A stretch of DNA of 31,902 nt from the IMG/VR virus record IMGVR_UViG_2925939204_000002; one strand, written 5' to 3'. The notes below the pieces were generated by a model that worked only from the letters and a program-made list of their open reading frames with translations, was not told where the DNA came from and searched no databases. The translations under genes and the position numbers were made by a program. This stretch comes from a virus (lineage: Duplodnaviria; Heunggongvirae; Uroviricota; Caudoviricetes). Below, piece by piece: positions 1 through 31,902 of this stretch (positions are counted from its first letter, which is position 1; each line of letters starts with the position of its first letter).

Positions 1-903
1 TTATGAAAGCATAGACCGTTTACCCTCCCTGGGTACGACGGAACAGGGGTCCTGATGGATAATTACATCCGATCCCGGAAAACGCCGTAAAATAGCCTGC
101 TCTACCTGATCCGCCACCATATGTGCCTGAACCAAAGGCAGAGAGTCTTCCATTTCCAAATGAATCTGAATAAAGCGGGTCGGCCCTGACTGCCGCGTGC
201 GAAGATCGTGAGCGCCGCTAACACCCGGCCAGGAAGTCACGATATCAATAATTTCTTGCCGTTCCTCATCAGGCAATGCGCGATCCAGTAATGACTGTAC
301 CGCCTCATATCCCATGCGTAACGCGCTATATAAAATATAGATGCCGATTCCCAATGCAAACAGAGCATCGGCGCGATGCCAGCCGTACCAGGACAACCCC
401 AGCGCCAGCAGAATTGCGCCGTTCATCATAACATCAGACTGGTAATGTAGCATATCAGCCCGCACCGCCTGGCTTTGCGTCCGGCGCACCACCCAACGCT
501 GAAACGAGACAAGGATAATCGTACAAATTAGCGCCACAATTGTCACGATAACCCCGACGCCTGGATCTGTCATCGGTGTTGGAGATATCAGATGTTGAAT
601 ACCCGTCAAAAACAGGAATAGTGCCGAACCGGAGATAAACATACTTTGCGCCAGCGCCGCGAGGGACTCTGCTTTACCGTGACCAAACGAGTGATTATCG
701 TCGGCAGGTTGCAGGGAATATCGCACCACCAGTAAATTCGTCAACGACGCGCCGATATCCACCAGCGAATCCACCAGCGCGGCGAGAATACTCACCGACC
801 CGGTATACCACCATGCAAAAATTTTAATCAGCAATAGCAACGAAGCCATCGCCGTCGCAGCAATCGCCGCCCGACTGACCAGCCGTCCATAAGATTGATT
901 CAT
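1..903 (-). CDS. fieF: Cation diffusion facilitator ferrous-iron/zinc efflux transporter FieF (YiiP); chromosomal flank
   Basis: ORF 1..921 translation from [17 protein letters not shown]... matches enterobacterial FieF as I recall it; multiple TM helices and the [14 protein letters not shown] motif; ATG at 903-901 gives about 300 aa. Confidence 0.9.
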
Positions 904-984
904 AAATACTCCCGCTATCAACTGACGCTAGTATAACGGAAGCAAATCATCTGCAATGCATTAAGCAGCAGGCAAATTGAGGAT

Positions 985-1540: not shown

Positions 1541-1603
1541 ATCCCTACCTTTTAAGCACCACTGTGAAAGTTGAAAAATAATATCAGGGGTAACAGGTAT
1601 AAG

Positions 1604-1632
1604 AAACCCGCCATGTAGGCGGGTTATTTTTA
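1604..1632. terminator. Hairpin terminator at the 3' end of ogr, possibly bidirectional
   Basis: aacccgcc-atgtag-ggcgggtt stem-loop (1604-1625) followed by atttttac on plus strand and by a weaker U tract on minus strand; overlaps the ogr stop codon. Confidence 0.45.
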
Positions 1633-1872
1633 CAGTGCCAGCGATAGCTGATCTTCGCCGTGGTGACTTCGTGGAAAAGCTTCTTGTGGCACCATCGCGC
1701 CGGGCGCTGGCTGGGTCTGGTTTAATGAACCGTCTATTTCCGTCATGCTGGTGAAACAGTACCCGCATAACATGTTTTGACACTGGTGATAGCTGCGCCG
1801 TACAAGCAAACTCAGCTCAACGCTGGTTCTGGTTTTTGCTATAGCACGGCAGCGAGGACAGCGCATTGCCAT
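1630..1872 (-). CDS. ogr: Ogr/Delta-family zinc-finger late transcription activator
   Basis: 80-aa product with CPRC ... HQCQNMLC Cys4 arrangement as in P2 Ogr; strong RBS aaggagg 6 nt upstream of ATG at 1872; sits downstream of D as in P2. Confidence 0.8.
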   Translation of the reverse strand: MAMRCPRCRAIAKTRTSVELSLLVRRSYHQCQNMLCGYCFTSMTEIDGSLNQTQPAPGAMVPQEAFPRSHHGEDQLSLAL

Positions 1873-1920
1873 ACGCGGGCCTCCTTTCAGGACTGGTTAA
1901 TATCAACGCAAGTATAACGC

Positions 1921-3039
1921 TTAAGACGTTGAATCGTCACTCTCCGCTGTCCAGTCGTCGATTTTTACTTCCAGTTCCAGCGACGTGGTAAACCCTCCCC
2001 CGCCAACATCGTGAACGCACCGTGTTATCGTCCAGCTTCCACTGTCGATCGTGGACTTAAACCCATAAACACTGGCTGGCTGTTCCGGGTACAAATCCGC
2101 GCGCCCACGCGCCAGGGTGATGCTGAACGTAGCCGCCCCGCGCTGCAACTCCCGCCACTTAGCCGCTGCGGCACGCTTTGCCGCCTTTTCCGTCTTGAAG
2201 GTTTTACGGATAACAAAAACGTTGCCTTCGGCCCCGGCCAGATAATCCCCTTCTTTTTTGCTTGATGCGGGTTCTTTCTTTTTGGCCTGGCTGGTTCGTC
2301 GCCTGCGGGTGGTTTTCTTCACGGTAGTGGATGGTTTCTTGCCAAAGTTGAGATCAAGCCAGTATGCAGTTACGCCCGTGTACGCGTCGCGGTCAGCTAC
2401 GTTAAACCGATGTTTATCACCGCTTGACCGGACTATCTCGATCACCGGCAGCGGCTTGCCGCTCTGCGTTACTCCCTTGCCCGGCGTGATAAACAGAAGC
2501 ATACCGTTTTTAATGGTTGCCACCGCGCCCAGCATTTCGGCCATGCGCGTTAAGAAGCTGATATCTGATTCACTCGTCTGATCGGCGTGATCTATCTCAA
2601 TCTTCGCCAGTTCTTCGCTGACGCCCGCACGCAGATCGTAACGGCTGGCAATGCTGGCAACCACATCCCCCACGGTAATATCGTGCCAGCTATATTCCCT
2701 CTTCACGTTAAAGGTATCGCGGAAATCTGCGCTTCTGGCACTGATCGTTAGCTGGTCAGGCGGGCCAGAGTGTCCGATCTCGTCAACCGTATACACGCCC
2801 TTAAAAACCAATGGATCATTATCCCAGCCCAGCGCCACCGATATCTTTGCGCCGCGTGATGGTAAGGCTACCTGCCCGTCTGCATCATCCAGAGTCAGAT
2901 CCAGCGTGTCCGCTTCAAAGCCCCGGTTATCTGTCAGGGAAAGGGAGATCAGCCGGTTATCCAGCGCCGTAAGCTGCTTACCTTCAATCTCAATACTGAA
3001 CGCCGGGCGCGGCGAATATCGGTTTTCTGTCGTGTCCAT
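1921..3039 (-). CDS. Phage late control / tail protein D (P2 gpD family)
   Basis: 372-aa product, N-terminus MDTTENRYSPRPAFSIEIEGKQLTALDNRL typical of gpD; position next to ogr. Confidence 0.85.
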   Translation of the reverse strand: MDTTENRYSPRPAFSIEIEGKQLTALDNRLISLSLTDNRGFEADTLDLTLDDADGQVALPSRGAKISVALGWDNDPLVFKGVYTVDEIGHSGPPDQLTISARSADFRDTFNVKREYSWHDITVGDVVASIASRYDLRAGVSEELAKIEIDHADQTSESDISFLTRMAEMLGAVATIKNGMLLFITPGKGVTQSGKPLPVIEIVRSSGDKHRFNVADRDAYTGVTAYWLDLNFGKKPSTTVKKTTRRRRTSQAKKKEPASSKKEGDYLAGAEGNVFVIRKTFKTEKAAKRAAAAKWRELQRGAATFSITLARGRADLYPEQPASVYGFKSTIDSGSWTITRCVHDVGGGGFTTSLELEVKIDDWTAESDDSTS

Positions 3040-3106
3040 ATCAACCCCTTCATCATGATGGGGTACATCGTCGCCACGCGCGCGCGCATGAACAACGCCC
3101 CGTCAT

Positions 3107-3124
3107 TGTTGCAGGTTGCTGACA
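3107..3124. promoter_or_regulatory. Candidate Ogr-binding dyad (TGT-N12-ACA) of a late promoter between D and FI
   Basis: tgt tgcaggttgctg aca is an exact TGT-N12-ACA; centre about 3115, roughly 55 bp from the expected FI start site and symmetrically placed relative to D. Confidence 0.45.
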
Positions 3125-3196
3125 ACCCTTATCCATCGCATCGGCCCGCCATTGCCGCAATGATATTCGCAGTCATTAAACTGGCGAGGCAAATAC

Positions 3197-4390
3197 ATGG
3201 CCACTAACTACCATCACGGTGTAACCGTCACGGAAACCACCGACCTTAGCACGATGATCACCGACATTGATTCGGCGGTGATCGGCGTTGTCTGCACCGC
3301 TGATGATGCGGACGAAACAGCGTTCCCGCTGGATACCCCTGTACTGATTACCCGCGTGGCTAACATGCTGGGCAAGGCAGGTAAAACCGGCACCCTGTTT
3401 ACCACCCTGAAAGCGATTTCAGACCAGACCAGCCCGCAAACCATTGTGATCCGCGTTGCTGATGCTGCAAATATCGAACCGCCAGAAGGCGGCACCGCAC
3501 AGACCCAGGATCAACTGGTTATTGGCGGCACCGATGCAAACGGGCGCTTTACCGGCATGTACGCGCTGCTGTCTGCCGAAATGCGCGTAGGTGTGCGCCC
3601 GCGTGTACTGGCTGTTCCAGGGCTTGATACGGAAGCGGTAGCCGCACAACTCGGCGTCATTGCCGAAAAGCTGCGCGCGTTTGCTTACGTGGCAGCGAAC
3701 GGTTGCAACACAATCGCCGAAGTGAAGGAATACCGCGAGCAATTCTCCCAGCGTGAAATGATGGTTATCTGGCCTAATTTCATCTGCTACGACACCAACG
3801 CCGGGGCTAATGCCACCGTGCCCGTGGGTGCCCATGCTGTTGGGATGCGAGCCAAAATCGACGCAACGCAGGGCTGGCATAAAACCATTTCCAACGTGCC
3901 CGTTAATAACGTGCTGGGGATGGATCGGGATATCTATTTCACGTTGCAGGGCACCGATACCGACGCCGACGAACTGAACGCAGCAGGCGTTACCACGCTG
4001 ATCAAGCAGGACGGCTACCGCATCTGGGGATCGCGTACCTGCGACGCGGAAACGTATATCTTCGAAAGCTATACCCGAACCGCGCAGATAGTTGCGGATA
4101 CCGTCGCCGAAGCCCATTTCGCCTATGTTGATAAACCGCTTACCCCGTCGCTGGTAAAGGACATTGTGGACGGCATCAATAAGAAGCTGACCTCATACGT
4201 GACGGCTGGCAAGCTGCTGGGCGCCCGCTGCTGGTATGACCCGGAACCGAATACCTCGGAAACCCTGCGCAATGGTCAACTGACCATTAAGTACAACTAC
4301 ACCCCTGTTCCACCGCTGGAAAATCTCAGCCTGGTACAGGAGTTCACCGACGAATATTTCGCTACGTTTTCCAGCGCAGTGAATAACTAA
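3197..4390 (+). CDS. Contractile tail sheath protein (P2 gpFI family)
   Basis: 397-aa product, size and N-terminus MATNYHHGVTVTETTDLS consistent with gpFI; followed by tube gene. Confidence 0.9.
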   Translation: MATNYHHGVTVTETTDLSTMITDIDSAVIGVVCTADDADETAFPLDTPVLITRVANMLGKAGKTGTLFTTLKAISDQTSPQTIVIRVADAANIEPPEGGTAQTQDQLVIGGTDANGRFTGMYALLSAEMRVGVRPRVLAVPGLDTEAVAAQLGVIAEKLRAFAYVAANGCNTIAEVKEYREQFSQREMMVIWPNFICYDTNAGANATVPVGAHAVGMRAKIDATQGWHKTISNVPVNNVLGMDRDIYFTLQGTDTDADELNAAGVTTLIKQDGYRIWGSRTCDAETYIFESYTRTAQIVADTVAEAHFAYVDKPLTPSLVKDIVDGINKKLTSYVTAGKLLGARCWYDPEPNTSETLRNGQLTIKYNYTPVPPLENLSLVQEFTDEYFATFSSAVNN

Positions 4391-4402
4391 CCGGGGGCGC
4401 TT

Positions 4403-4918
4403 ATGGCACTGCCTAAGAAACTCAAATATTTCAATATGTTCTTTGACGGGGATAACTACTTCGGCATGGTGCCGGAAATCACCCCCGCCAAACTCACCAA
4501 AAAAACCGAAGACTACCAGGCGGGTGGTATGCCAGGTTCGGTTGCGGTGGATCTTGGCTTCGACGCTGGCGCCCTGGATATGGATATCACGCTTGGCGGT
4601 CTGGATGCCGGATTGCTGAAAAAATGGGGCGTTACCACTGCGGACGGGATGCAAACACGTTTTGCTGGCTCCTATCAGGACGACGCAACCGGCGACGCTG
4701 TACCGTGCGAAATCCAGACGCGTGGCCGCTTCACTGAACTGGATCCCGGTTCGGCAAAAGTCGGGGATGACACTTCGCATAAGTACACCCTGAAAAACAC
4801 CTATTACAAGCTGACCATCAACGGCGAAGAGATTATCGAAGTTGATGTGCTCAACATGATCTACAAAGTTGCCGGTGTGGATGTGCTGGAAAAACACCGC
4901 GCTAACATCGGCCTATAA
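4403..4918 (+). CDS. Tail tube protein (P2 gpFII family)
   Basis: 171-aa product MALPKKLKYFNMFFDGDNYFG, size and position match gpFII. Confidence 0.9.
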   Translation: MALPKKLKYFNMFFDGDNYFGMVPEITPAKLTKKTEDYQAGGMPGSVAVDLGFDAGALDMDITLGGLDAGLLKKWGVTTADGMQTRFAGSYQDDATGDAVPCEIQTRGRFTELDPGSAKVGDDTSHKYTLKNTYYKLTINGEEIIEVDVLNMIYKVAGVDVLEKHRANIGL

Positions 4919-4932
4919 GGAAACCCGGCACC

Positions 4933-5268
4933 ATGAGCAAAACCAAAGAAAACACCGTTATTCTTACCGCCCCTATTACGCGCGGTAAGACCAAAATCAC
5001 CGAAGTGGCGATCACTTCCATGCTTAAACAGGCTGGATCACTGCGCGGCTTAAAAGCCTATGACGTGCTGACTTCCAACTATGACGCGCTGGTTATTCTG
5101 CTGCCCCGCGTTACCGCTCCGGCACTAACCGCCGATGAGATTGCCCGTATGGATACCTGGGATTTTTGCCAGCTAGCCAACGCGGTGGTTGATTTTTTGC
5201 AACCCTCTTCGGATCTGACCGCGACGGATACGGGCAACGAATCATCCGATGCCCCTGCGAACGCATAG
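4933..5268 (+). CDS. Tail assembly chaperone gpE (in-frame product)
   Basis: 111-aa ORF directly upstream of the tape measure gene; contains a slippery heptamer. Confidence 0.75.
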   Translation: MSKTKENTVILTAPITRGKTKITEVAITSMLKQAGSLRGLKAYDVLTSNYDALVILLPRVTAPALTADEIARMDTWDFCQLANAVVDFLQPSSDLTATDTGNESSDAPANA

Positions 5269-5393
5269 AAGACCTGATGGCAGATATCGCCGTCATATTC
5301 CACTGGCGGCCGGTAGAGATGGACGCCATGACGGTACAGGAAATACTGTTATGGCGTGATCAGGCGGCTGCGCGCAGTGGTGGAGATCACTAA
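4933..5393 (+). CDS. Tail assembly chaperone gpE+E' made by programmed -1 frameshift
   Basis: The -1 frame after the slippery site stays open to TAA at 5391-5393, immediately before the T start; expected from the conserved E/E' (lambda G/GT-like) arrangement. Confidence 0.6.
5193..5199 (+). promoter_or_regulatory. Slippery heptamer TTTTTTG for the gpE/E' -1 ribosomal frameshift
   Basis: T TTT TTG in the E reading frame at 5193-5199; the -1 frame is open from here to 5393. Confidence 0.55.
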
Positions 5394-8321
5394 ATGGCAG
5401 ACCGCAATTTAAATATCAGGGTGGCATTCAGCGCCCTGAATAATATGTCCCGCCCTGTCAACGCGGCGCGCCAGAGTGCCGCCGCGTTGGCGTCTCAAAT
5501 CAACCAGACTAAAACCAGCATTAAAGGGCTTGAGCGTCAGGCAACCAGCTTTGACCGCCTCACCGCAGCCAATAAAAAAACCACCGAACAACTGGCCCAG
5601 GCGAAAGAACAGGCCCGGCAAATGGCGGCGGCTTATGGCCCGTTACGCCAGCGCAGCGCCGAACAAGTTGCCGCCCTCAATCAGCAACGTGCAGCCATTC
5701 GCCAGTTAACCCAGCAGCAGAAAGGCGAGCAGACGCAGCTTAACCAGTTGCGGGCCAGCTTCTACAGCGAAGGCATTGCGATCAGCAGCGCCAGCCGGGC
5801 GACGGAACAGATCAACCAGCGCACCGCGCAATACAACCGCCAGCTTGCTGAACAGCAACGACGGCTTGACGCTGTTAACCAGGCGCAGGCCCGTTACAGC
5901 CGCGCCAAAGAAACCGGCGAAAAGATGATGAGCGGGGGAATGAAAACCGCCGCAGTAGGGGCGGCAACACTCGTACCTGTCGCCGCTGCGGTGAAATCCT
6001 ACAGCAGCCTCGAAGACGCGATGAAGGGCGTAGCCAAACAGGTAAATGGCTTACGTGACGACAGCGGCAACCGCACCCCGCAGTATGAAGAAATGCAGCG
6101 GGCGATCATGGATGCCAGCGAAAAGCTGCCAATGGCTAACGGTGCTGTTGACTATGCCGCCCTGGTCGAAGGCGGCGCGCGTATGGGCGTCGCAAACAGC
6201 GATGATCCCTGGCAAAAGCAAAAAGCCGATCTGCTGTCTTTTGCCAGCATGGCGGCAAAAGCTTCGGTAGCCTTTGAACTGCCCGCCGATCAGCTTTCTG
6301 AAAGCCTGGGGAAAATTGCCGGGCTGTATAAAATCCCCACCCAGAATATTGAACAGTTAGGCGACGCCATAAACTACCTGGACGATAACGCGAAGTCGAA
6401 AGGCTCCGATATTATCGACGTACTCCAGCGCGTTGGTGGGCTTGCCAGCCAACTGGATTACAAGCAAGCCGCCGCGCTAGGTTCCACCTTTCTGACGCTC
6501 GGCACCCCTGCCGAAGTTGCCGCCAGCGCCACCAATGCAATGGTGCGCGAACTCTCAATCGCTACGGTTCAGGGCAAAAACTTTATGCAGGGTCTGGACG
6601 CCCTCGGCCTCAGCGCCGAAAAAGTTCAGAAGAGCATGTCAGTGGACGCGATGGGCACAATCATTTCAGTGCTGGAAGCGTCCAAAAAACTGGCCCCGGA
6701 TCAGCAGGTAGCCAACCTTACCCAGATTTTTGGCAAAGAGTTCGGCGATGATGCGCAGAAACTTGCCAACAACCTGCCCGAACTACGCCGCCAGATAGAA
6801 CTGACGCAGGGCGCAGCCGCTAAAGGTTCCATGAATAGGGAGTCTGATATCAATAAAGCTTCCCTTTCTGCTCAATGGCAACTGACAAAAACCGGCGCGG
6901 TTAACGCATTCAGTTCAGCAGGTGAAACCCTTCGCGATCCGCTGATGGATATCATGCTTACCGTCAGTAAGGTGGTTGGCAGCGTCCGCCGCTGGGTGGA
7001 GGCAAACCCAGCGCTGGTTGGTTCAATCATGAAAGTCACCGCAGCCATAGGCGCTTTGCTGGTTGTCATGGGTGGCCTGATGCTGTCCATCGGCGCAGTA
7101 CTTGGCCCAATGGCACTTGTTCGCCTCAGCTTCACCTCGCTGGCCGGGGAAGGAGGAATAGCGCGTCTGACTGGCGGAGTAATGCGCCTGGGTGGTGCGT
7201 TCCAGTGGCTTGCTGGCTCGCCTATGCAGGCATTGTTAAGCGCCGGTCGCATGGTATTCGGCCCGCTTATCACGCTACTGGCTGGCATTTCTGCGCCCGT
7301 CTGGGGGCTGATTGCTCTCTTTGCTGCGGTAGCAGTGGCCGTAATTAAATTCTGGCAACCGATTAAGGCATTTTTCAGCGGCTTCTTTACCGGTCTGATG
7401 GCTGGCCTTCAACCAATAACGCAGTCGTTTAACGCCGTATTCGCACCACTGGCCCCGATTTTTAACAGTATCGGCAACGCGATCAGCGGCGTCTGGGAAT
7501 GGTTTACCAAACTACTGGAGCCGATCCAGTTTTCCAGTGAAGCGCTGGCATCCTGCACCAGTGCAGGGGAAACCTTCGGTAAGGTGGTTGGGGCCACAAT
7601 CAGCGCGCTGACGCTTCCCATTCAGGCCGTAGCCAAAGGGCTGGGCTGGATTCTGGAAAAGCTGGGCGCCATTCCCGACGCAGCGAAAGCAGCGCAGCAG
7701 GTTGCGCAGCAAATGACGCCGGAAGCGGTAAACAATCTGGCAGACCGGGTTAACGCCTTTTCCGGTGACGTGCAGGCAGTCGCGAAGGAAAGCAAAAAAG
7801 CCGAAGAGAAAAAGAAAACCGATGAGCAGAAGAAACAGGACAACCTGATTAACTCGCTCAAAGGCCCGGCCAACATCGTGCCGAAGATGAGCAACAGCCT
7901 GGACAAGATCGCCACCAATACCACGGAGAAGAAAGACGGCCCCGGCGAAATTGTCTTCAAGAATAAGCAGCCCTATATCCCGATCCGTGGCGGATATTCG
8001 GAACCGCTTAAGCAGGCGCAGCGCCAGCTACCATCCCTTACCGATTGGGTGACGCAGCAGGCCGGATCGCTGATCGCTTCCGTTACGCCTTGGCAGGTTG
8101 AGAAGCCCGCCGCACGGATGCCTGTTTCGGCGTCTCCGTCTGCGGCTTCCGTCGCTGCGCTGATGCCTGCTCCGGGTGGCGATGTATATAACCTTAACTT
8201 CGACTTTAGCGGCCAGAAACTGGATGAAGAAACCATTATCAGGCGCGTGCGCGAAGAACTTGCGTTAGCGAAGCAACAGGCCGACCGGCGCAAGCGCTCC
8301 CAACTGACCGATCACGTCTAA
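5394..8321 (+). CDS. Tail tape measure protein (P2 gpT family)
   Basis: 975-aa product with coiled-coil N-terminal third, hydrophobic Gly/Ala-rich central segments and charged C-terminus; follows E/E'. Confidence 0.9.
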   Translation: MADRNLNIRVAFSALNNMSRPVNAARQSAAALASQINQTKTSIKGLERQATSFDRLTAANKKTTEQLAQAKEQARQMAAAYGPLRQRSAEQVAALNQQRAAIRQLTQQQKGEQTQLNQLRASFYSEGIAISSASRATEQINQRTAQYNRQLAEQQRRLDAVNQAQARYSRAKETGEKMMSGGMKTAAVGAATLVPVAAAVKSYSSLEDAMKGVAKQVNGLRDDSGNRTPQYEEMQRAIMDASEKLPMANGAVDYAALVEGGARMGVANSDDPWQKQKADLLSFASMAAKASVAFELPADQLSESLGKIAGLYKIPTQNIEQLGDAINYLDDNAKSKGSDIIDVLQRVGGLASQLDYKQAAALGSTFLTLGTPAEVAASATNAMVRELSIATVQGKNFMQGLDALGLSAEKVQKSMSVDAMGTIISVLEASKKLAPDQQVANLTQIFGKEFGDDAQKLANNLPELRRQIELTQGAAAKGSMNRESDINKASLSAQWQLTKTGAVNAFSSAGETLRDPLMDIMLTVSKVVGSVRRWVEANPALVGSIMKVTAAIGALLVVMGGLMLSIGAVLGPMALVRLSFTSLAGEGGIARLTGGVMRLGGAFQWLAGSPMQALLSAGRMVFGPLITLLAGISAPVWGLIALFAAVAVAVIKFWQPIKAFFSGFFTGLMAGLQPITQSFNAVFAPLAPIFNSIGNAISGVWEWFTKLLEPIQFSSEALASCTSAGETFGKVVGATISALTLPIQAVAKGLGWILEKLGAIPDAAKAAQQVAQQMTPEAVNNLADRVNAFSGDVQAVAKESKKAEEKKKTDEQKKQDNLINSLKGPANIVPKMSNSLDKIATNTTEKKDGPGEIVFKNKQPYIPIRGGYSEPLKQAQRQLPSLTDWVTQQAGSLIASVTPWQVEKPAARMPVSASPSAASVAALMPAPGGDVYNLNFDFSGQKLDEETIIRRVREELALAKQQADRRKRSQLTDHV

Positions 8322-8330
8322 GGCAATATC

Positions 8331-8780
8331 ATGATGATGATTCTGGGGATGTTCCCCTTTTCACTGCAAACCACACCTTACCAGAGTGCGAATAAAACCA
8401 ACTCCTGGCGGCACGTCAAAAACGATCGCGTGGGGAAATCCCCGCGCTATCAGTTCATCGGCGCAGATGAAGAACCGTTCGTACTCAGCGGCACGCTGTA
8501 CCCCGAAATAAGCGGCGGTGATGTGTCGCTTGTCATGCTGGAAACTATGGCTTTTTCCGGGCGCCCGTGGCCCCTGATAGAAGGCACGGGCAGGATCTAC
8601 GGCATGTATGTAATTGAGCAGATCACGCAAAACCGGACGGAGTTTTTTAAGGACGGGAAGGCAAAGAAAATTGATTTCACGCTCAACCTGAAACGGGTAA
8701 GCGAGGACATACGGGAAAAGCTGGCTGAAACCACTACCGACGATCTCTTCTCTCTGGTGAAAACCAACCTTTCGATATAA
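8331..8780 (+). CDS. Tail protein U (P2 gpU family)
   Basis: 149-aa product immediately after T; N-terminus MMMILGMFPF. Confidence 0.8.
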   Translation: MMMILGMFPFSLQTTPYQSANKTNSWRHVKNDRVGKSPRYQFIGADEEPFVLSGTLYPEISGGDVSLVMLETMAFSGRPWPLIEGTGRIYGMYVIEQITQNRTEFFKDGKAKKIDFTLNLKRVSEDIREKLAETTTDDLFSLVKTNLSI

Positions 8781-8832: not shown

Positions 8833-8889
8833 CCGTGCTACAGCACCGTTAAAAGTGACCGTACTCGATACACACGGCCAGCACGGTTA
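8833..8889. repeat. Copy A of a ~57-bp structured intergenic repeat
   Basis: 42 of 48 core positions identical to 15461-15508, plus cgtgct upstream; contains 12-bp palindrome gtgct-ac-agcac and conserved tcgatacacacggccagcacggtta; abuts the invertase stop. Confidence 0.5.
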
Positions 8890-9468
8890 TAACCGGCCAT
8901 GCGTGCCGGAATTCTTATCTCTGGTCGCTGGGAATTTTTTGTAAAGCGTAGATATCCCAACATCATAAATTATGGCAACCCTCCGGCGCGATTCCCCTGC
9001 CGCTATTAACCTACCCGCCTGCGCCCATTGTTCTGGTGTTAGTTTTGGACGTCTACCGCCGATCCTTCCCTGCGCGCGAGCGGCCACCAGTCCTGCACGC
9101 GTACGCTCGACAATCAATTCTCTCTCCATCTCTGCCAGTGCTCCCATAACATGAAAAAAGAAACGCCCCATTGGTGTTGAGGTATCAATACTGTCCGTCA
9201 GGCTGCGGAAGTTCACGGAACGTTGCTTTAGTTCCTCCACCAGAATGACCAAGTTCCGCATACTCCGCCCAAGACGATCCAGCTTCCAGACAACAAGCGT
9301 ATCTTCTGGAGAAAGGCGCTTTAGTAATTTTTTAAGCCCTGGCCTTTCCGCTGTTCTCCCGCTCATTTTATCTTCAAAAATTAGCTCACATCCTGACCGC
9401 TCAAGCGCATCACGTTGCAAAGCCGTGTTCTGGTCATTTGTTGATACGCGCACATATCCAATAAGCAT
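8887..9468 (-). CDS. Site-specific DNA invertase, Hin/Gin/Pin/Cin-family serine recombinase
   Basis: 193-aa product MLIGYVRVSTNDQNT...VVWKLDRLGRSMRNL...SPMGRFFFHVMGALAEMERELI, near-identical in motif content to Gin/Pin; catalytic Ser in the YVRVST context; C-terminal HTH. Confidence 0.9.
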   Translation of the reverse strand: MLIGYVRVSTNDQNTALQRDALERSGCELIFEDKMSGRTAERPGLKKLLKRLSPEDTLVVWKLDRLGRSMRNLVILVEELKQRSVNFRSLTDSIDTSTPMGRFFFHVMGALAEMERELIVERTRAGLVAARAQGRIGGRRPKLTPEQWAQAGRLIAAGESRRRVAIIYDVGISTLYKKFPATRDKNSGTHGRL

Positions 9469-9522
9469 GGTTTTTCATTCCTTTAAAACGATAAATCATG
9501 CCATTCGGCTAATAATTATGCA

Positions 9523-9548
9523 TTTTCAAAAACGTTCGTTTCGAACTG
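9523..9548. promoter_or_regulatory. Candidate invertase crossover site (hix/gix-like) immediately upstream of the invertase gene
   Basis: ttttcaaaaacg tt cgtttcgaactg: A-rich half-sites aaacg/cgttt around a 2-bp centre, resembling the GAAAACC-NN-GGTTTT core of hix/gix; positioned as gixR/hixR are relative to their recombinase genes. Confidence 0.3.
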
Positions 9549-9641
9549 GGGGGGGAGTGACGGGCTGTGAAGGGCGATGTTGCTCTGATGGAAAATTCCG
9601 GGTCTTGCTGATGCGTGTCGATACAGCAAAACCCGTATGGC

Positions 9642-9875
9642 TTACTCCTCTGGATAATGAGTAGGCGCATTATACTGACTGACGTACTCGTTAAGCTCCG
9701 GCGGGTATGTCACTTTTGCTGTATCTCGCTCTACGTTGAATGTATCCGCTCCCCAGATAACACACTCCCTCAAAAATGCCTCCACCTCTGGCGAGACTTC
9801 AACCGCATCATCAGGTCGCTCTTGTTCAGAAACATAAAAACCAACGGTCGTTGGGCTGAAATAGATATTCTCCAT
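9642..9875 (-). CDS. Tail fibre assembly (Tfa) chaperone-like protein, short form, probably truncated
   Basis: 77-aa product MENIYFSPTTVGFYVSEQERPDDAVEVSPEVEAFL resembles the conserved N-terminal domain of Tfa proteins, but the usual C-terminal domain is absent; lies between tail fibre H and the invertase. Confidence 0.5.
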   Translation of the reverse strand: MENIYFSPTTVGFYVSEQERPDDAVEVSPEVEAFLRECVIWGADTFNVERDTAKVTYPPELNEYVSQYNAPTHYPEE

Positions 9876-9877
9876 AT

Positions 9878-11134
9878 TTAGTATCCTATTGCTTCAAAAT
9901 GCAGTGTCGGTGTTTCGCCGAGATTGGGTGTCGTATACGCCACAGTGAATCGCGTTCTTGATACGTCAGTGCCAGAATCAGTATCGCGATGCGTTGCCAG
10001 TGATTTTCCGGCCATTGTTGCCTGGGTCGAATAGCTGTAACTCGCTAGTGTTGCCAGCGTTGCTATTTGTGCATTTGGGAATTGTCTGGGGAAATTAACC
10101 CTGTAGTAATGGGTGTAGTACGTCACCCCACCGAGCACCTGCGCGCTGAAGTTACCAACTGGTGTCAGTGTCACAGTGCCAGCCTGTCGAATCATACCAT
10201 TTGGGAGAATATCCCAGGCAGTTTGTCCGTTTCGCGACATACCAAATGCGGACATGTCCGGGAGTTGATTATTACCGGTTCCCACGTCCCTTTTTGCCGC
10301 TTCTCCCAATTGAAGGTTTTGTAGAAAAACAGAAACGTTTTCTATGTCTGAACCATTTGCCGATTTATCCATCTTTCCAGCGAGTGAATTTGTTACGGTG
10401 GTAGCAAAGTTAGGATCATTACCCAAAGCCGCAGCAAGTTCATTCAGCGTATCCAGCGCTTCAGGCGAAGAGCCAACCAAAGCAGCAATAGCAGCCTGAA
10501 CGAAAGCTGTATTTGCAATTTGAGTAGAACTATCTTTGCCTTCCGCCGTTGGCGCAGTCGGCCTGCCAGTAAGAGCGGGACTTTCTTTTGGTGCGTATTG
10601 TTTATGCGGATCAGCCGCAGCTACATGCGCTGCCATTTTCTGATCAACATAGCTTTTCACCTGGATGATCTGATCATCAACATACTGTCGGGTTGCCAGA
10701 ACTACCGAAGGGTCAATTTTCAGCGTTACGGCAGCGGTGCTGCTGACAATCAGGATCATGCGTACAACCTGTACGCGCCCGCTTCCCTCCTGTAACTGCG
10801 GCTTATACGTTTCCGCACAGTTGGCTACGGCAATCATATCGCCGTCTTTATCGAATAAACCGATTTCACGGATCCACCACCCGCCCTCGTCTTCAGGTAT
10901 CACCTGCTCGGCAATAATCTGGTTGGCGTTATTCGGGTCAATGCTCAGACTATTAAGCGGCTTGCGGCGCAGCTCATGAACCAGCGCCGTTTGTGCCGGG
11001 TTCGGCGTCGGCAACACGCCGTTACCATCGCCTACAGCCATCTGGGTGATTTCAACCTGCGCACCCAATGCCGTGGCATTTGCCAGTTTCGCCGCGCCCA
11101 CATTGGTTAGCACGGCATAATATTTAGTCGCCAC
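9878..11134 (-). CDS. Tail fibre protein (P2 gpH family), about 418 aa from GTG start
   Basis: N-terminal region ATKYYAVLTNVGAAKLANATALGAQVEITQMAVGDGNG...SGRVQVVRMILIVSS matches the conserved gpH N-terminal domain; GTG at 11134-11132 overlaps the gpI stop. Confidence 0.85.
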   Translation of the reverse strand: MATKYYAVLTNVGAAKLANATALGAQVEITQMAVGDGNGVLPTPNPAQTALVHELRRKPLNSLSIDPNNANQIIAEQVIPEDEGGWWIREIGLFDKDGDMIAVANCAETYKPQLQEGSGRVQVVRMILIVSSTAAVTLKIDPSVVLATRQYVDDQIIQVKSYVDQKMAAHVAAADPHKQYAPKESPALTGRPTAPTAEGKDSSTQIANTAFVQAAIAALVGSSPEALDTLNELAAALGNDPNFATTVTNSLAGKMDKSANGSDIENVSVFLQNLQLGEAAKRDVGTGNNQLPDMSAFGMSRNGQTAWDILPNGMIRQAGTVTLTPVGNFSAQVLGGVTYYTHYYRVNFPRQFPNAQIATLATLASYSYSTQATMAGKSLATHRDTDSGTDVSRTRFTVAYTTPNLGETPTLHFEAIGY

Positions 11135-13001: not shown

Positions 13002-13627
13002 ACCGGGCCACCTGTATTACTACCACCGGACTGGACGCCGCTATGTTTGTGAGAATGGACAACGACACCATTAGACGAAAGCGATCCGCCTGAATGGGTA
13101 ATATTGCCCTTCATTTCCCCGCCCTTTTGCACTTCCAGCGTGGCGGTGATCAGCTTGTTGGTGCAGACCACTTCCGGCGTGTCCAGGGTAACGCGCGTAT
13201 CTGCCTTGACCGTTACCACCGGCACGGTGGCGGTAATGGATTCCGACGCGGTGACGCTTGCCGTTTTTACCCCGCTGACAACCAGCGCGCTGGCCTCCGG
13301 GTCATATGAAATACGGGCGCCATCCGGGTGCAGGATCACGCAGGTGGTAGCGCCAGCATCTGGCGGCGGTGCGTCTTTGCTGTAAAGGCTTCCGGCAATG
13401 AATGCCGTCTCCAGCTCACCGCAGGGGCACAAAATATAAACCTGTTCGCCCACTGTCGGCGCCCACCACGTCACGGCTTCACCGGCGCGCGGCACTGCCC
13501 AGCGGATCCAGTCGGTTTTGTTCTCGCCGGTTTCGACGCGTGCAAGATACTTTTCCGTATCCACTTCCAGCACGGTGCCAATGCGGGCGAGATTGCAGAT
13601 AAGGCGATAGAGTTCGTTTAAATTCAT
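12998..13627 (-). CDS. Baseplate spike/assembly protein V (P2 gpV family)
   Basis: 209-aa product MNLNELYRLICNLARIGTV; first gene after the S-V intergenic region. Confidence 0.85.
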   Translation of the reverse strand: MNLNELYRLICNLARIGTVLEVDTEKYLARVETGENKTDWIRWAVPRAGEAVTWWAPTVGEQVYILCPCGELETAFIAGSLYSKDAPPPDAGATTCVILHPDGARISYDPEASALVVSGVKTASVTASESITATVPVVTVKADTRVTLDTPEVVCTNKLITATLEVQKGGEMKGNITHSGGSLSSNGVVVHSHKHSGVQSGGSNTGGPV

Positions 13628-13765
13628 AGTGCTGACTGTTTCCCGTGGTGCCGGTTACGCTGTCCGGCGTCGTTTCCACCCGGTAGCAGGCTTTACGACC
13701 GTTTCGGCTTTTGGGTTATGCAGTCAGTATCAGGAGTCGCGCGCGCGCAAACAACGCGGCGCCCT

Positions 13766-13783
13766 TGTGGCGGGTTGGTGACA
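13766..13783. promoter_or_regulatory. Candidate Ogr-binding dyad of the V-operon late promoter
   Basis: tgt ggcgggttggtg aca is an exact TGT-N12-ACA located between the S stop (13785) and the V start (13627). Confidence 0.45.
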
Positions 13784-13784
13784 A

Positions 13785-19168: not shown

Positions 19169-20014
19169 TCAGCAGTCAGCAAGCTGGGCGTTAGATTTTT
19201 CAGTTGCGCCGGTCGCTTCCGGGCGGCGGTATTTACTGGCGTCCTGGGTAGAAAGCTGCGCTTTCATCTCGTCGAACTCAGAGCGCAACTTATCCACCGC
19301 TTCGGCGGTCTGCTTGTTCTTAAGCTGCCCTGCGCTCAGTTTTTCCATCTTGTCCAGCAATTCACCCTGACTTTCCGCTACCAGTTCAACCGCCTGGCGG
19401 ATATCGCCATTTTCACGATCGAAGTGCTGGCGGGTTCCGGTCAGCATTTCCTTGATACGGGAAAAGAAATTCTTCCCGGTGTCGGACGCTGGCGGCTCTT
19501 CCTGCGCAAATTCGAGGGATGATTCCAGGGTTTCAGTGAAGAAGCATTCAGGTGCGTAGTGACGCGCAGCCAGTGGGTTGGCGCTGGCGTTCTGGGTGCA
19601 AAACTTCATCATTTCGGTGCCCAGGCTCGCCGGGTTATCGGTACAGGCCAGCCCCATAAGGTAGGCTTTTCCGGTGTCGGCAAAGGACGGATGCACCTCA
19701 ATGCTATGGTAGATTTTCTGGCGTTTGCCTTTCAGTTCTACCAGTTCGTCCGTGGCGTCCACCTTCACCAGAAGCGCCAGTTTGCCCTTTAGCGGGCCCT
19801 CGGCAATCTCTTCTGCTTTGGCTTCAACCACGTCACCATACGCGCGGAAATCGCTTGTCGGCGACCAGCCTAAAATGTGCTCCAGATTGACGCGGGCGCC
19901 ATATACCTGGGGATCGTACTGTTCGGCCATTTCGGTGATGTGCTGACGTTCCAGTACTCGACCGTCACAGGTTGCGCCCTCTACTGCGGCGCGGAAAAAA
20001 TTTGTCATTGGCAT
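19169..20014 (-). CDS. Capsid scaffolding protein O (P2 gpO family)
   Basis: Internal ATG at 20014 gives MPMTNFFRAAVEGATCDGRVLERQHITEMAEQYDPQVYGARVNLEH, matching the gpO N-terminus; the longer 440-aa ORF runs into the divergent P gene and is rejected. Confidence 0.85.
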   Translation of the reverse strand: MPMTNFFRAAVEGATCDGRVLERQHITEMAEQYDPQVYGARVNLEHILGWSPTSDFRAYGDVVEAKAEEIAEGPLKGKLALLVKVDATDELVELKGKRQKIYHSIEVHPSFADTGKAYLMGLACTDNPASLGTEMMKFCTQNASANPLAARHYAPECFFTETLESSLEFAQEEPPASDTGKNFFSRIKEMLTGTRQHFDRENGDIRQAVELVAESQGELLDKMEKLSAGQLKNKQTAEAVDKLRSEFDEMKAQLSTQDASKYRRPEATGATEKSNAQLADC

Positions 20015-20103
20015 GGTGACAAAGCTCCGGGTTGGTAAGCGATTGATATTAACCAGTGCCCCAATCATTCCCTTTGCGGCCGGAAGGCGCAAAGCCTTCA
20101 CTT

Positions 20104-20121
20104 TGTCGGACTCAGGCGACA
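20104..20121. promoter_or_regulatory. Candidate Ogr-binding dyad in the divergent O/P late promoter region
   Basis: tgt cggactcaggcg aca is an exact TGT-N12-ACA; spacing fits the O promoter; the P promoter site was not identified. Confidence 0.4.
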
Positions 20122-20167
20122 ACCAGCGGCGATATTGTTGCGCGCGCGAGCGCGATAGCCTGTTGCC

Positions 20168-21880
20168 ATGAATACAGCCGAAGACCTCAGCACAAAAGCC
20201 AAAAGCCTCTACTGGCAGGCGTTTAGCATCACTCAGATTTCTAAGGAAATCGGGGTGAGCATTAACACGATCTACAGTTGGCGCCGCCGCTATGAATGGG
20301 ATAAAGCTACCCCCATGCAGCGGGTGCAGGATCGCACGCACGTTCGTTACCTGCGCCTGGTGGAAAAGGACGACAAAACCCCGAAGGACTTTAAAGAAAT
20401 TGACCTGCTGGCGCGCCAGCTTGACCGCTTTGAACGGCATGAGCGACGCGACCAGGAGAAAGAGAAGAAGGCGAAGACCCCGAAAAACCATTTCACCGAA
20501 GAACAGATAACTCAGCTTCGCGCCCTGATCTTTGATTCGCTATACGAGCATCAAAAACGCTGGTTCAAACAGTGGAACCGGCGTAACCGCTTTATCCTCA
20601 AATCGCGCCAGATTGGTGCCACCTGGTACTTTGCCCGCGAAGCGCTGTTGCGTGCGCTGGAAACCGGAAATAATCAGATATTCCTGTCAGCCAGCCGCGC
20701 CCAGGCGTTCCAGTTCAAGCGGTTCATTCAGAAGCTGGCAAGGGAAATAGGAGTAGAACTTAAGGGCGGTGATGCCATTGAGTTAAGCAACGGTGCGATC
20801 CTGTATTTTCTCGGCACCTCCGCCGCGACGGCCCAGAGCTACACCGGCGATCTGTACCTTGATGAAGCCTTCTGGATCAGTAATTTCATCAAACTGCGCT
20901 CGGTGGCCGCAGGCATGGCGACACAAAAAGGACTGCGCCGCACCTACTTTTCGACGCCTTCCAGTGAAGAACATGAAGCCTATCCCTTCTGGACTGGCGA
21001 TCAGTTCAATGAAAGCCGCCGCCGATCCGATCGGGTGGATATCGACACCAGTTATAAGGCACTGAAAAACGGCAAGCTATGCGGGGATAACATCTGGCGC
21101 CAGATAGTCACGCTGGAAGACGCCATGAAGCTCGGTTTCGATCTGGTTGATATTGATGAAATCCGTAGCGAAAACTCCCTTGACGAATACGCCAACCTGT
21201 ACGGATGTACCTTCGTTAAAGCAGGGGAACGCGCCTTCGACTACAACACAATTTTGGGCTGCGGCGTTGATGGCTACATGCCGGACGCGTGGCCGGACTG
21301 GAACCCGTTTGCACCTCGCCCGCTGGGTAATCGCCCTGTCTGGGTTAGCTATGACCCCAACGGCAGCAGCGGCAAAGGCGACAGCGCCGGGCTGGTTGTG
21401 CTGGCCCCGCCAGCCGTGCCGGGTGGCAAGTTCCGCGCGGTAGAACGCCACCAGTTACGCGGCATGGAGTACGAAGAGCAGGCCAAATTTATTAAAGAGA
21501 TCACCACCCGCTACAACGTGCAGCACATTGCTATCGACGGCACAGGGATCGGCGATGCGGTTTATCAACTGGTGATCAAGTTCTTCCCGCAGGCGGTTAA
21601 ATACAACTATTCACCGGTTCTTAAGCGGTCGATGGTGCTCAAAATGTTGATGGTCATTCGTGCCGGGCGCTTTGAGTTCGACGCCGGAATGATGGATCTC
21701 GCACAGTCGTTTATGACCGTGCGTAAAGTCACCGCAGGCGGCGTTATTACCTACCAGTCCGATCGGGCCCGTGGCAGCAATCACGGCGATCTGGCATGGG
21801 CAACTATGCAGGGCATTTACAACGAACCGATCGGCGCGGAAGTGACCGGCGATAACGGCAGTTTTGTGGAGGAGTTTTAA
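20168..21880 (+). CDS. Terminase large (ATPase) subunit P (P2 gpP family)
   Basis: 570-aa product with N-terminal HTH-like region; divergent from O as in P2. Confidence 0.9.
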   Translation: MNTAEDLSTKAKSLYWQAFSITQISKEIGVSINTIYSWRRRYEWDKATPMQRVQDRTHVRYLRLVEKDDKTPKDFKEIDLLARQLDRFERHERRDQEKEKKAKTPKNHFTEEQITQLRALIFDSLYEHQKRWFKQWNRRNRFILKSRQIGATWYFAREALLRALETGNNQIFLSASRAQAFQFKRFIQKLAREIGVELKGGDAIELSNGAILYFLGTSAATAQSYTGDLYLDEAFWISNFIKLRSVAAGMATQKGLRRTYFSTPSSEEHEAYPFWTGDQFNESRRRSDRVDIDTSYKALKNGKLCGDNIWRQIVTLEDAMKLGFDLVDIDEIRSENSLDEYANLYGCTFVKAGERAFDYNTILGCGVDGYMPDAWPDWNPFAPRPLGNRPVWVSYDPNGSSGKGDSAGLVVLAPPAVPGGKFRAVERHQLRGMEYEEQAKFIKEITTRYNVQHIAIDGTGIGDAVYQLVIKFFPQAVKYNYSPVLKRSMVLKMLMVIRAGRFEFDAGMMDLAQSFMTVRKVTAGGVITYQSDRARGSNHGDLAWATMQGIYNEPIGAEVTGDNGSFVEEF

Positions 21881-22930
21881 TTGAGCGGCAAAAAAAAATT
21901 CAGGGCGCCAACTGCTGCGCCAGCCAGCACGGCCAGCAACGCAGCCACCCCGCTGGAAAGCGTGGAATCTTTCAGCTTTGGCGACCCGATCGCAGTCAAC
22001 GATCGCGCGTCTCTTATGGAGTGCCTCGAATGCCATAACAATGGCCGCTGGTATGAACCACCGATCAGCCCCTACGGGCTGGCGCGCATGTTCGACGTTG
22101 CCGCCTATCACCAGTCACCGCTGATATTTAAACGCAATGTTATCGCCAGTTGCTACATACCGCACCCGCTGTTGACCCGGCAGGAGTTCACCGCCTGGGT
22201 GCAGGATTATTTAATTTTCGGTAACTGTTACATGGAATGCCGCCGCAACCGACTCGGCCAGCCGATCGAGCTGCGGCACAGCCAGGCAAAATATACGCGG
22301 CGCGGCATAGACCCGGCGCAATTCTGGTTTGTTCCGCGCTACGTTGACGATCACGCGTTCGAACCGGGCAGCGTCTGCCAGATCAAGAACCCCAGCCCGC
22401 ACCAGGAGATCTACGGTGCGCCGGAATATCTGGCCGCGCTACAAAGCGCCATGCTGAACGGTGAAGCAACGGTGTTCCGCCGCAACTACTACATTAACGG
22501 CAGTCATGCGGGTGTGATCGTCTACCTCACTGACCCGGTGGCGAATAATAACGATGTGGAAAAGCTTAAGAAGTCGCTGAAAGATGCACGCGGCAACGGT
22601 GCTTTTAAAAACCTGTTTGTCTACGCGGCGGGCGGGAAAAAAGACGGCCTGCAAATTATGCCGTTCAGCCAGGTGGCGGCGAAGGATGAGTTTACCGGCA
22701 TCAAAGACGCCACCCGCGACGACCTGTTAGCCGCGCACCGCGTGCCGCCCGTTCTGATGGGGGTAATGCCGAATAACTCCGGTGGCTTCGGCGACGTAGA
22801 GAAAGCGGCGAAGGTGTTTTCCATCAACGAACTGGCCCCGATACAAGAAAGCCTGAAAGAGTTAAACGACTGGCTGGGGATCGACGTGGTGCGCTTCAAC
22901 CCTTACGCACTGTTGCAGGCAGCAATCTGA
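21881..22930 (+). CDS. Portal protein Q (P2 gpQ family)
   Basis: 349-aa ORF beginning at TTG directly after the P stop; last gene before cos; exact start codon uncertain. Confidence 0.85.
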   Translation: MSGKKKFRAPTAAPASTASNAATPLESVESFSFGDPIAVNDRASLMECLECHNNGRWYEPPISPYGLARMFDVAAYHQSPLIFKRNVIASCYIPHPLLTRQEFTAWVQDYLIFGNCYMECRRNRLGQPIELRHSQAKYTRRGIDPAQFWFVPRYVDDHAFEPGSVCQIKNPSPHQEIYGAPEYLAALQSAMLNGEATVFRRNYYINGSHAGVIVYLTDPVANNNDVEKLKKSLKDARGNGAFKNLFVYAAGGKKDGLQIMPFSQVAAKDEFTGIKDATRDDLLAAHRVPPVLMGVMPNNSGGFGDVEKAAKVFSINELAPIQESLKELNDWLGIDVVRFNPYALLQAAI

Positions 22931-23413: not shown

Positions 23414-24526
23414 ATGGACGTTTATGTTTATGCTGATGAATCTGGACATTCAGGTCGCAATATTTTTGACGAGAGATCACCGACATACTTTCAGGGGGCG
23501 ATAATCTCTCATGGTGACGTTGATCCTATCATTAACGAAGTTGTCCAGCGGCACTGCAAGGCTTTAGGCGTTCCGCGTCTTCACTCAAATGAACACCAAG
23601 AGCATGTTGTTTCAGTAATTTGCTCAGATCTTCTTGATGCACTTGAAAATACCTCTTGGGAATTTTCACTCTGCGTTATTCACAAACCTTATCTCGCACC
23701 AACCAAGTTTGTTGATCTGTTTTTTGATAGTGCTGATAATCCTGGCGTCCCGGTCTTGTGGTACAACACCGAATTATTTAGACATGCTATGTGCTTAGGT
23801 ATGGCAGATATCTTGTCCGATGAAGATAACAAGGCTTTTTGGGATGGTTTCCTGAGCGACGACATGCCAAAAATGCTTCAAGTTGCGGAAATTGCACTTT
23901 CAAGAATTGACCGCATACTAGATCCGCGAATGAAAGAAGTTATGACTGATGGTTTAACTTACGCGATCAGCCACCCTGACGAATTCACCTTAATTTGTAC
24001 CCATGGGAAAAGCGCCTACAAAGGCCAAACGCCTAATATGGTTGCTTTTTCTAGTCTGATGGGGGCTACACATTCTTTCTGTAAAAAGCATTCCTCTTCC
24101 GTAAAAGAATTGATCCATGACAGAAGCGACGAGTTTCGCGGGACGATGAGAGAATATCACCGCATTTTTCATAAAATCGATCATGTAGAGGACGATTTGG
24201 GGGGCCCAATTCTTTTTGAGGAGGCTCAATTCGATTTAGGTAAATTCGATCTTCGAAGTTCAGAAAGTCATCCAGCGCTGCAAGCTGTAGATGTTTTTTT
24301 GTGGATGCTGCAAAGAGACTTGATTACTGATGAAGGAAAAAAAGCTCTAGAACGACTAAAAAAACATCTCAATGATTTCGTGATATCTCCTTCCATGTCT
24401 CAGTTGATTGTAAGGGCACGTACATATCAACTTAACAGTAAACCTCTTTCATCTGAACAGTTCAAAGCGGGAAGAAAATTTTCTGCTCAGTTAGAAGCTA
24501 AACGACAGAAGCGTTTGAGAAGATAA
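23414..24526 (+). CDS. Hypothetical protein, 370 aa, AT-rich moron in the cos-proximal hotspot (P2 old/tin position); candidate defence gene
   Basis: ATG at 23414 with gaagga RBS; AT-rich codon usage; N-terminal YVYADESGHSG motif (reminiscent of DUF3800-type proteins, unverified); no P-loop seen; flanked by terminators. Confidence 0.7.
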   Translation: MDVYVYADESGHSGRNIFDERSPTYFQGAIISHGDVDPIINEVVQRHCKALGVPRLHSNEHQEHVVSVICSDLLDALENTSWEFSLCVIHKPYLAPTKFVDLFFDSADNPGVPVLWYNTELFRHAMCLGMADILSDEDNKAFWDGFLSDDMPKMLQVAEIALSRIDRILDPRMKEVMTDGLTYAISHPDEFTLICTHGKSAYKGQTPNMVAFSSLMGATHSFCKKHSSSVKELIHDRSDEFRGTMREYHRIFHKIDHVEDDLGGPILFEEAQFDLGKFDLRSSESHPALQAVDVFLWMLQRDLITDEGKKALERLKKHLNDFVISPSMSQLIVRARTYQLNSKPLSSEQFKAGRKFSAQLEAKRQKRLRR

Positions 24527-30921: not shown

Positions 30922-31902
30922 ATGTCGATTAAGAAGCTCGAAGGTGGTCAATATGAAGTGGACGTATGGCCGCGCGGACGTAACGGAAAACGTATCCGCA
31001 GGCGATTTGAGAAGAAACAAGAGGCAGTTCTTTTTGAGCGTTATGTATTAGCCAACGCCGACAAAAAAGAATGGCTGGGCGCGAGCGTTGACCGCCGCAC
31101 CTTAAGCGAGTTGTTAAATACTTGGTGGCTGCTATATGGACAGACTCAGGAAAATGGCGAGATTGAAAAGCGGCATCTGAATAAAACAATCAGGGCGCTT
31201 GGTGATCCAGCCGTTAACCGACTGAACAAGCGAATGATTGCACAGCACCGTAGCCAACGGCTGGAAGACGGTATCAGCGCAGCAACGATCAACCGGGATA
31301 TTTACCGCTTGTCCGGGATGTTCAGCACGTTGATAAAGCTGGAAGAGTTCAGGAAGGAAAACCCCTGTAAGGGTCTGGAACCACTGAAAGAAGCACCGCC
31401 AGCTATGACCTACCTCGCCAAATCAGAGATCAGCAAATTGCTGGATACTCTGACCGGCGACGATCGACGCGTAGCACTGTTATGCCTAAGCACCGGCGCA
31501 CGCTGGGGCGAAGGTAGCACGCTGCGAGGCGAGCAGGTAAATCACGGGCGCGTGACGTTTCTTAAGACCAAAAACGGGAAAAAGCGCACGGTTCCGATAT
31601 CGGAAGAACTGGAGAAAGAGATCAAGACCAGCGACACTGGGCCACTGTTCAAAGTTGACTATGAAAACTTCTGCGAACGGCTCAGACAGGTTAAGCCCGA
31701 TTTACCACGCGGGCAGGCCACGCATGTGCTTCGGCATACATTTGCAAGCTGGTTCATGATGAACGGGGGGAACATTATTGCGTTACAGCAAATTCTGGGG
31801 CACGCCAGCATACAACAGACGATGGTTTATGCTCACCTTGCACCTGATTACCTGCAACACGCAGTAACGTTAAACCCTCTCGGCGGCGGGCTGGCGGTGT
31901 GA
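30922..31902 (+). CDS. int: Tyrosine site-specific integrase (P2 Int family)
   Basis: 326-aa product with catalytic region HVLRHTFASWFMMNGGNIIALQQILGHASIQQTMVYAHL (conserved His/Arg and Tyr); GGAGGG RBS; stop codon is the last triplet of the window. Confidence 0.9.
   Translation: MSIKKLEGGQYEVDVWPRGRNGKRIRRRFEKKQEAVLFERYVLANADKKEWLGASVDRRTLSELLNTWWLLYGQTQENGEIEKRHLNKTIRALGDPAVNRLNKRMIAQHRSQRLEDGISAATINRDIYRLSGMFSTLIKLEEFRKENPCKGLEPLKEAPPAMTYLAKSEISKLLDTLTGDDRRVALLCLSTGARWGEGSTLRGEQVNHGRVTFLKTKNGKKRTVPISEELEKEIKTSDTGPLFKVDYENFCERLRQVKPDLPRGQATHVLRHTFASWFMMNGGNIIALQQILGHASIQQTMVYAHLAPDYLQHAVTLNPLGGGLAV

Follow-up and report, generated by a model that had tools for sequence, protein, structure and literature searches.

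The window, by which we mean the whole stretch of DNA analysed here (31,902 nucleotides, IMG/VR record IMGVR_UViG_2925939204_000002), is a P2-like prophage. Positions 1600 to 4500 are 95% identical to the Salmonella phages SEN4 and SEN5 (Peduoviridae, Senquatrovirus), and a Salmonella enterica chromosome (CP191473.1) shows 99-100% protein identity to the window across D, FI and ogr. The names D, FI and P given in the first-pass annotation hold, with matches to Phage_GPD, to the tail sheath and, by domain search, to the terminase large subunit, respectively. The O, S and V gene calls were based on the SEN5 annotation and on tblastn. The resulting gene map is as follows.

1-921, minus strand: host cation-efflux gene
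1630-1872, minus strand: ogr, the late activator gene (Pfam Ogr_Delta, E = 1.5e-13)
1921-3039, minus strand: gene D, tail/baseplate hub protein (Pfam Phage_GPD, E = 5e-19; 99% identical to SEN5 gp28)
3197-4390, plus strand: gene FI, tail sheath, the first gene of the FI-FII-E-T-U operon (Pfam Phage_sheath_1 and Phage_sheath_1C)
3197-8780, plus strand: FI-FII-E-T-U block
8887-9468, minus strand: DNA invertase
ending at 13627, minus strand: tail fibre to V
13785 to about 20014, minus strand: S back to O
20168-22930, plus strand: P and Q
between Q and int: replication and immunity genes
30922-31902, plus strand: int

A comparison of this gene order with that of the P2 record showed that the FI-U block is inverted relative to P2, with D facing away from FI. 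The invertase encoded between U and the tail-fibre genes is of the Hin/Gin type, an arrangement like that of P88-like phages. In this region (8887-9468 and 9245-9881) a tail-fibre assembly gene is present only as a 77-aa remnant, a single weak pair of inverted repeats (9191-9206 and 10491-10506) was found around the invertase gene, and the invertible host-range segment may be degenerate. At the other end of the map, the minus strand carries an ORF at 1157-1783, past the ogr terminator, whose match to PHROG 2320 (unknown function) begins at residue 82. This small cargo gene adjoins the host cation-efflux gene at the end of the prophage, and its long 5' extension, which overlaps ogr, is probably not translated.

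The interval between D and FI is 157 bp long and contains, at one mismatch or fewer, a single site of the Ogr type. It is centred at 3115.5, at distances of 76.5 bp from the first base of the D start codon (A at 3039, minus strand) and 81.5 bp from that of the FI start codon (A at 3197), which agrees with the near-equidistance of about 76 and about 82 bp noted earlier. Exact matches to TGT-N12-ACA had also been reported at 3107-3124, 13766-13783 and 20104-20121, and our re-scan recovered all three. The dyads, and the predicted promoter elements discussed below, are listed here.

3106-3125: Ogr-type inverted repeat TTGT-N12-ACAA (TTGTTGCAGGTTGCTGACAA), putative activator site common to PF and PD
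3106-3164, plus strand: PF composite motif, hexamer AATGAT
3159-3164, plus strand: predicted PF -10 hexamer AATGAT, 33 nt from the dyad end
3125-3067, minus strand: PD composite motif, hexamer GACGAT
3067-3072, minus strand: predicted PD -10 hexamer GACGAT, 33 nt from the other dyad end
3077-3087: PD spacer tract of alternating (CG)n, lying at about -29 to -19
3090-3095, minus strand: weak -35-like TTGTTC (3/6 matches), 17 bp upstream of the PD -10 hexamer
13765-13784: second dyad (TTGTGGCGGGTTGGTGACAA), predicted to belong to PV
13784-13726, minus strand: PV composite motif, with -10 hexamer GATACT at 13731-13726
20103-20122: third dyad (TTGTCGGACTCAGGCGACAA), predicted to be common to the divergent PO and PP
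20122-20064, minus strand: PO composite motif, hexamer AATGAT
20064-20069, minus strand: predicted PO -10 hexamer AATGAT, start at about 20057
20103-20161, plus strand: PP composite motif, hexamer TAGCCT
20156-20161, plus strand: predicted PP -10 hexamer TAGCCT, identical to the P2 pP hexamer

The possibility that the dyad between D and FI is a chance match without a regulatory role was weighed against motif counts over the window. Bare TGT-N12-ACA is not enriched, with 7 exact matches against 5.6 expected, and with one mismatch allowed the count stays at chance level (116 matches against 121 expected). Four of the seven exact matches (13044, 14632, 23814 and 27844) fall within coding sequence. 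These counts would be compatible with chance, but all three intergenic dyads are in fact the longer palindrome TTGT-N12-ACAA, of which the window holds 4 matches against 0.53 expected, a number reached in 0 of 100 shuffles. The composite motif TTGT-N12-ACAA-N33-nAnnnT is found 5 times against 0.06 expected, always at late-operon boundaries, and the five matches are exactly the predicted PD, PF, PV, PO and PP. Since these extended and composite motifs are far above chance, and since the position of the D/FI dyad is kept over more than 25 genera (see below), a chance origin is effectively refuted. Three dyads thus appear to serve five predicted late promoters. The fourth TTGT-N12-ACAA match, at 23813-23832, was rejected as a candidate: this perfect copy is located in a low-GC region, within a DUF3800 cargo gene, neither of its sides has at N33 a hexamer with A in second and T in sixth place (A2/T6), and it is probably a chance occurrence.

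Predicted transcription starts were placed at the 7th nucleotide after the hexamer, a rule that reproduces the annotated pP, pO and pF starts of P2. For PF this gives a start at about 3171 and a 26-nt FI leader with a Shine-Dalgarno sequence, GAGG, at 3186-3189; for PD, a start at about 3060/3059 and a D leader of about 20 nt with GAAGGGG at 3051-3045. By this P2-calibrated rule the two predicted starts are about 111 bp apart, and the dyad centre would lie at about -55.5 for both. Both predicted promoters have a sigma-70 -10 hexamer with a poor -35, the PF sequence at the latter position being TCGCAT (2/6 matches), and as stand-alone promoters neither PF nor PD passes a full sigma-70 consensus scan. 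The GTTGTT element of PD is also present in PV and PP of the window. As for structured RNA, Rfam gave no family anywhere in the window, and the RNA fold of 3040-3196 was no better than that of shuffled sequences (z = -0.67). The prophage itself encodes a cognate activator; the ogr product carries the zinc finger C5-X2-C8-X22-C31-X4-C36 (CX2CX22CX4C).

Ogr sites are described in PMC3152322 as inverted repeats whose centre lies near -55 and which work through RNA polymerase alpha, and the authors of the Smp131 study assign one dyad to both PP' and PO' (PMC3931495). The P2 GenBank record, which together with secondary citations is our source for the P2 precedent, has one feature for both promoters, 'activator binding site; pO, pP promoters' (3057-3087), and gives the starts of the P operon as 3016 (minus strand) and of the O operon as 3127 (plus strand), 111 bp apart. 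The 20-bp P2 dyad occupies 3062-3081, and TAGCCT (pP) and GAAACT (pO) each lie exactly 33 nt from its ends; P2 pF has the same layout but with N34. The predicted PF/PD pair is like P2 pP/pO in having one dyad, perfect or imperfect, between divergent late operons and hexamers at N33 on both sides; its predicted centre near -55 and predicted spacing of starts, 111 bp, also agree with P2. The O/P interval of the window itself has the P2 layout. The window differs from P2 in having the shared-site layout at a second locus, D/FI, whereas P2 keeps D at the end of its F operon and without a separate promoter, so that five predicted late promoters on three sites stand against four on three sites in P2. 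P2 pF and pV and the late promoters of 186 and of P4 (Psid and PLL) share with those predicted in the window a repeat near -55 (in the window a predicted position), a weak -35, a sigma-70 -10 and an encoded Ogr_Delta zinc-finger activator, but their sites work in one direction only. The SEN4-type palindromes are also cleaner, being TTGT-N12-ACAA in all three cases, whereas P2 has CCA for ACA at pF and pO/pP, and its pV dyad has an 11-nt spacer. An Ogr site shared by two promoters and used in both directions is thus already established. The D/FI pair would be a second instance of it in the phage and not a new mechanism, because P2 pP/pO already uses one shared site.

In bacteria generally, Class I activation of the CRP type can serve divergent promoters from one site: a dimeric, symmetric site lies ahead of the core promoter, contact is made with the alpha C-terminal domain, and polymerases on either side can be served. 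Ogr belongs to a different protein family and recognizes a different site, and the comparison is an analogy only.

Conservation of the arrangement was determined with a D-protein profile scan, using one genome per species, which yielded 80 D-gene loci from Enterobacterales. FI is divergent from D in 56 of them (D identity about 59% or more), and the P2 gene order, U then D, is found in the other 24 (D identity about 59% or less). The divergent loci come from Salmonella, Citrobacter, Hafnia, Enterobacter, Pectobacterium, Photorhabdus, Xenorhabdus, Yersinia and others, including Providencia, Morganella, Serratia, Klebsiella, Kosakonia, Erwinia, Pantoea and Edwardsiella, and the divergent D/FI arrangement is also present in phages P88, 3LV2017, phiT5282H, ST16-OXA48phi5.4, KSP20 and Shae_phiSM. 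Every one of the 56 divergent loci, which represent 54 unique intergenic regions, carries one dyad at the D/FI position, and over more than 25 genera this position is kept while the flanks diverge. Over the unique regions the half-sites are exact TGT-N12-ACA in 32, TGT-N12-AGA in 18 and altered by two changes in 4; the dyad centre lies mostly 80-85 bp from the FI start codon and about 64-99 bp from that of D. No exact dyad was found in the U-D junction, upstream of D, at any of the 24 loci with P2 order.

The right half-site thus reads AGA instead of ACA in about a third of relatives, which indicates that symmetric use of the site is not obligatory. Two Providencia D/FI loci have TCT-N12-AGA, in which both half-sites are changed symmetrically, and this fits a symmetric protein site. 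Ogr of Providencia reads AVTYTKTS where most others have AVAKTRTS, and the two changes may represent a co-variation of site and protein that points to the DNA-reading residues.

Thirty representatives of less than 80% identity were then anchored on the dyad and scanned for the A2/T6 hexamer at offsets 24 to 45. On the FI side the hexamer is at N33 in 30/30 representatives, with other offsets reaching at most 17%; on the D side it is at N33 in 26/30, with other offsets at most 20%, and the remaining 4 lack it at that position. PD hexamers have a mean of 3.0 matches to TATAAT, against 3.6 for PF hexamers, and in the same scan a GTT at N10-12 on the D side was kept among the relatives. The D leader varies in length and the N33 spacing is fixed, which is what dependence on the position of an activator predicts, with the qualification that related sequences share ancestry and part of the conserved spacing may be inherited rather than selected.

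This spacing bears on a second explanation, in which the dyad serves PF only and D (and ogr) is transcribed from an Ogr-independent sigma-70 promoter in the D/FI interval. A consensus scan does find a candidate on the D strand, TCGCCA-16-TATCAT at 3187-3160 (minus strand), with 9/12 matches; alternatively, TTGTTC-17-GACGAT could be constitutive at a low level, as PD has a partial -35 (TTG). Few copies of D are needed, and a weak constitutive promoter could suffice. However, the 3187-3160 site is present only in the two SEN4-like members of the 30 representatives, and no other sigma-70-like site is conserved on the D strand. The strict N33 spacing on the D side, next to a variable leader, is a prediction of activator dependence, and P2 has the same geometry with two Ogr-dependent promoters. 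We therefore consider an Ogr-independent origin of D transcription unlikely.

A further element of PD is its alternating (CG)n tract. In the window GCGCGCGCG is found only in the spacers of PD (3077-3087), PV (13738-13748) and PP (20140-20148). Among relatives the tract was counted when C and G alternate for 6 nt or more from a point 17-25 nt past the dyad. By this measure 24/30 regions have it on the D side and 3/30 on the FI side, and at the O/P interval 15/23 have it on the P side and 3/23 on the O side. By these counts the tract marks the predicted promoter of low-copy products (D; terminase and portal) and is absent from that of the bulk structural proteins. We found no description of this element.

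The tract also bears on a third explanation, in which the interval holds no promoter for D, and D is expressed by read-through or antisense transcription that starts further right on the minus strand, perhaps on the invertase or tail-fibre side, and crosses FI-U. Nothing specific speaks for it. Such transcription would have to run for about 5.7 kb antisense to the most heavily transcribed late operon, and it would leave the conserved D-side hexamer, the GTT element and the (CG)n tract unexplained. We regard this origin of D transcription as very improbable.

The reading that we prefer is the one proposed in the first-pass annotation, namely that a single symmetric dyad could activate both D and FI. 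Given the geometry, the clade-wide conservation and the direct precedent of P2 pP/pO, we think it likely that the region between D and FI is a bidirectional late promoter pair built around one symmetric Ogr site. The 157-bp interval would then hold two back-to-back activator-dependent sigma-70 late promoters, PF directed rightward and PD leftward. Ogr would bind the TGT-N12-ACA repeat at 3106-3125 and, by contact with the alpha C-terminal domain, which is established for P2, bring in RNA polymerase on either face; PF would drive FI-FII-E-T-U, and PD would drive D and probably continue into ogr. Binding of Ogr, the start sites and the dependence of PD on Ogr we infer from what was observed directly, that is, from the motif, its fixed geometry, its conservation and the match to the P2 pP/pO layout.

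At the O/P interval, where the dyad centre is 55.5 bp from the P start codon, the earlier observation of a single site, with none separate for P, is borne out. The site was also judged too close to the P start codon to serve P with a normal leader; a single site is no anomaly, as P2 itself shares one between pO and pP, and it is the norm among relatives. In 22 of the 23 representative O/P intergenic regions taken from viral contigs, one dyad is flanked on either side by hexamers at N32-35. In the window TAGCCT is followed by six bases and then by the ATG of P at 20168, so that the 7th nucleotide after the hexamer is the A of the start codon. There is an in-frame TAG at 20156-20158, and no Shine-Dalgarno sequence was found upstream of P. 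Because the predicted start coincides with the A of the P start codon, the P (terminase) mRNA is predicted to be leaderless. Diverged relatives, with no more than 49-64% identity in their P proteins, repeat this order of hexamer, 6-7 nt and ATG, and most relatives have a predicted P leader of 16-20 nt with a strong Shine-Dalgarno sequence. The P2 record places the start of the V operon (10308) on the A of the V ATG, i.e. the P2 V mRNA is annotated as leaderless, and a leaderless late mRNA consequently has a precedent in the family.

The S/V intergenic region (13628-13784 in the window) and PV exist in SEN4-like phages. PV and PD of the window agree at 17/20 dyad positions, and adjacent GTTGTT and (CG)n elements are present in both. 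In P88, 3LV2017, phiT5282H and ST16-OXA48phi5.4, V abuts or overlaps S, and these phages therefore seem to have PD without PV.

The distribution of the (CG)n tract admits a tentative further reading, which we offer as a possibility only: in this clade each shared Ogr site could drive an asymmetric pair, in which PF and PO are the high-output members and PD and PP the low-output ones, with the conserved (CG)n tract as a dedicated element setting the ratio or the timing, and with a PP transcript that in the SEN4 subclade would be leaderless setting the dosage of terminase through leaderless translation. The tract could in that case act as a Z-DNA-prone or supercoil-responsive spacer, or as the site of a second factor.

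Expression of the activator gene itself was also considered. ogr lies 48 bp past D and is followed by a hairpin. A candidate Ogr-independent sigma-70 promoter for ogr, GTGACG-18-TATACT (1940-1911, minus strand), is located at the D/ogr junction, mirroring the -35 and -10 signals annotated between D and ogr of P2. No terminator was predicted between D and ogr, and for this reason PD transcripts would probably continue into ogr. By analogy, this read-through would provide the late positive feedback that P2 obtains through read-through of its F operon.

Three features of the SEN5 record (NC_028701.2) are likely to need correction. The first is the scaffold gene O (3092-3991), whose annotated start is likely misplaced upstream by 54 nt and falls within the predicted PO -10 hexamer. 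In window coordinates we place the O ATG at 20014, against 20068 in the SEN5 record, and the alignment with P2 gpO begins at residue 3 of the 20014 start. The second is the 50-aa 'hypothetical protein' SEN5_27 (20707-20859), which spans the whole D/FI promoter region and is likely a misannotation; we did not take it for a gene, and among relatives the interval varies in length and sequence except for the promoter elements. The third is the 'ogr' feature (22160-22279), annotated as a 39-aa ORF on what is likely the wrong strand; an 80-aa Ogr_Delta protein is encoded on the plus strand, at 22042-22281. Promoters, ogr and the inversion are mentioned neither in the SEN4/5 paper (PMC5261728) nor in the P88 paper (PMC5285337).

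A likely history of the locus is that the FI-U block was inverted and PF, together with its palindromic site, thereby came to lie beside D, after which only a -10 hexamer on the other flank would have been needed to create PD. The understanding of Ogr-type activation is unchanged by this, because P2 pP/pO already works in the same way; what is new is the predicted fifth late promoter, PD, which would have arisen through reuse of a palindromic site after an inversion. The composite motif TTGT-N12-ACAA-N33-nAnnnT provides a simple and testable rule for annotating late promoters in such prophages. The proposed pair would explain how late control of D was kept after the FI-U inversion across a P2-like clade that comprises SEN4/5, P88, 3LV2017, phiT5282H, KSP20 and prophages in more than 25 enterobacterial genera, the palindromic site being reused in the other direction, and it would be an example of the birth of a promoter by rearrangement beside a symmetric site.
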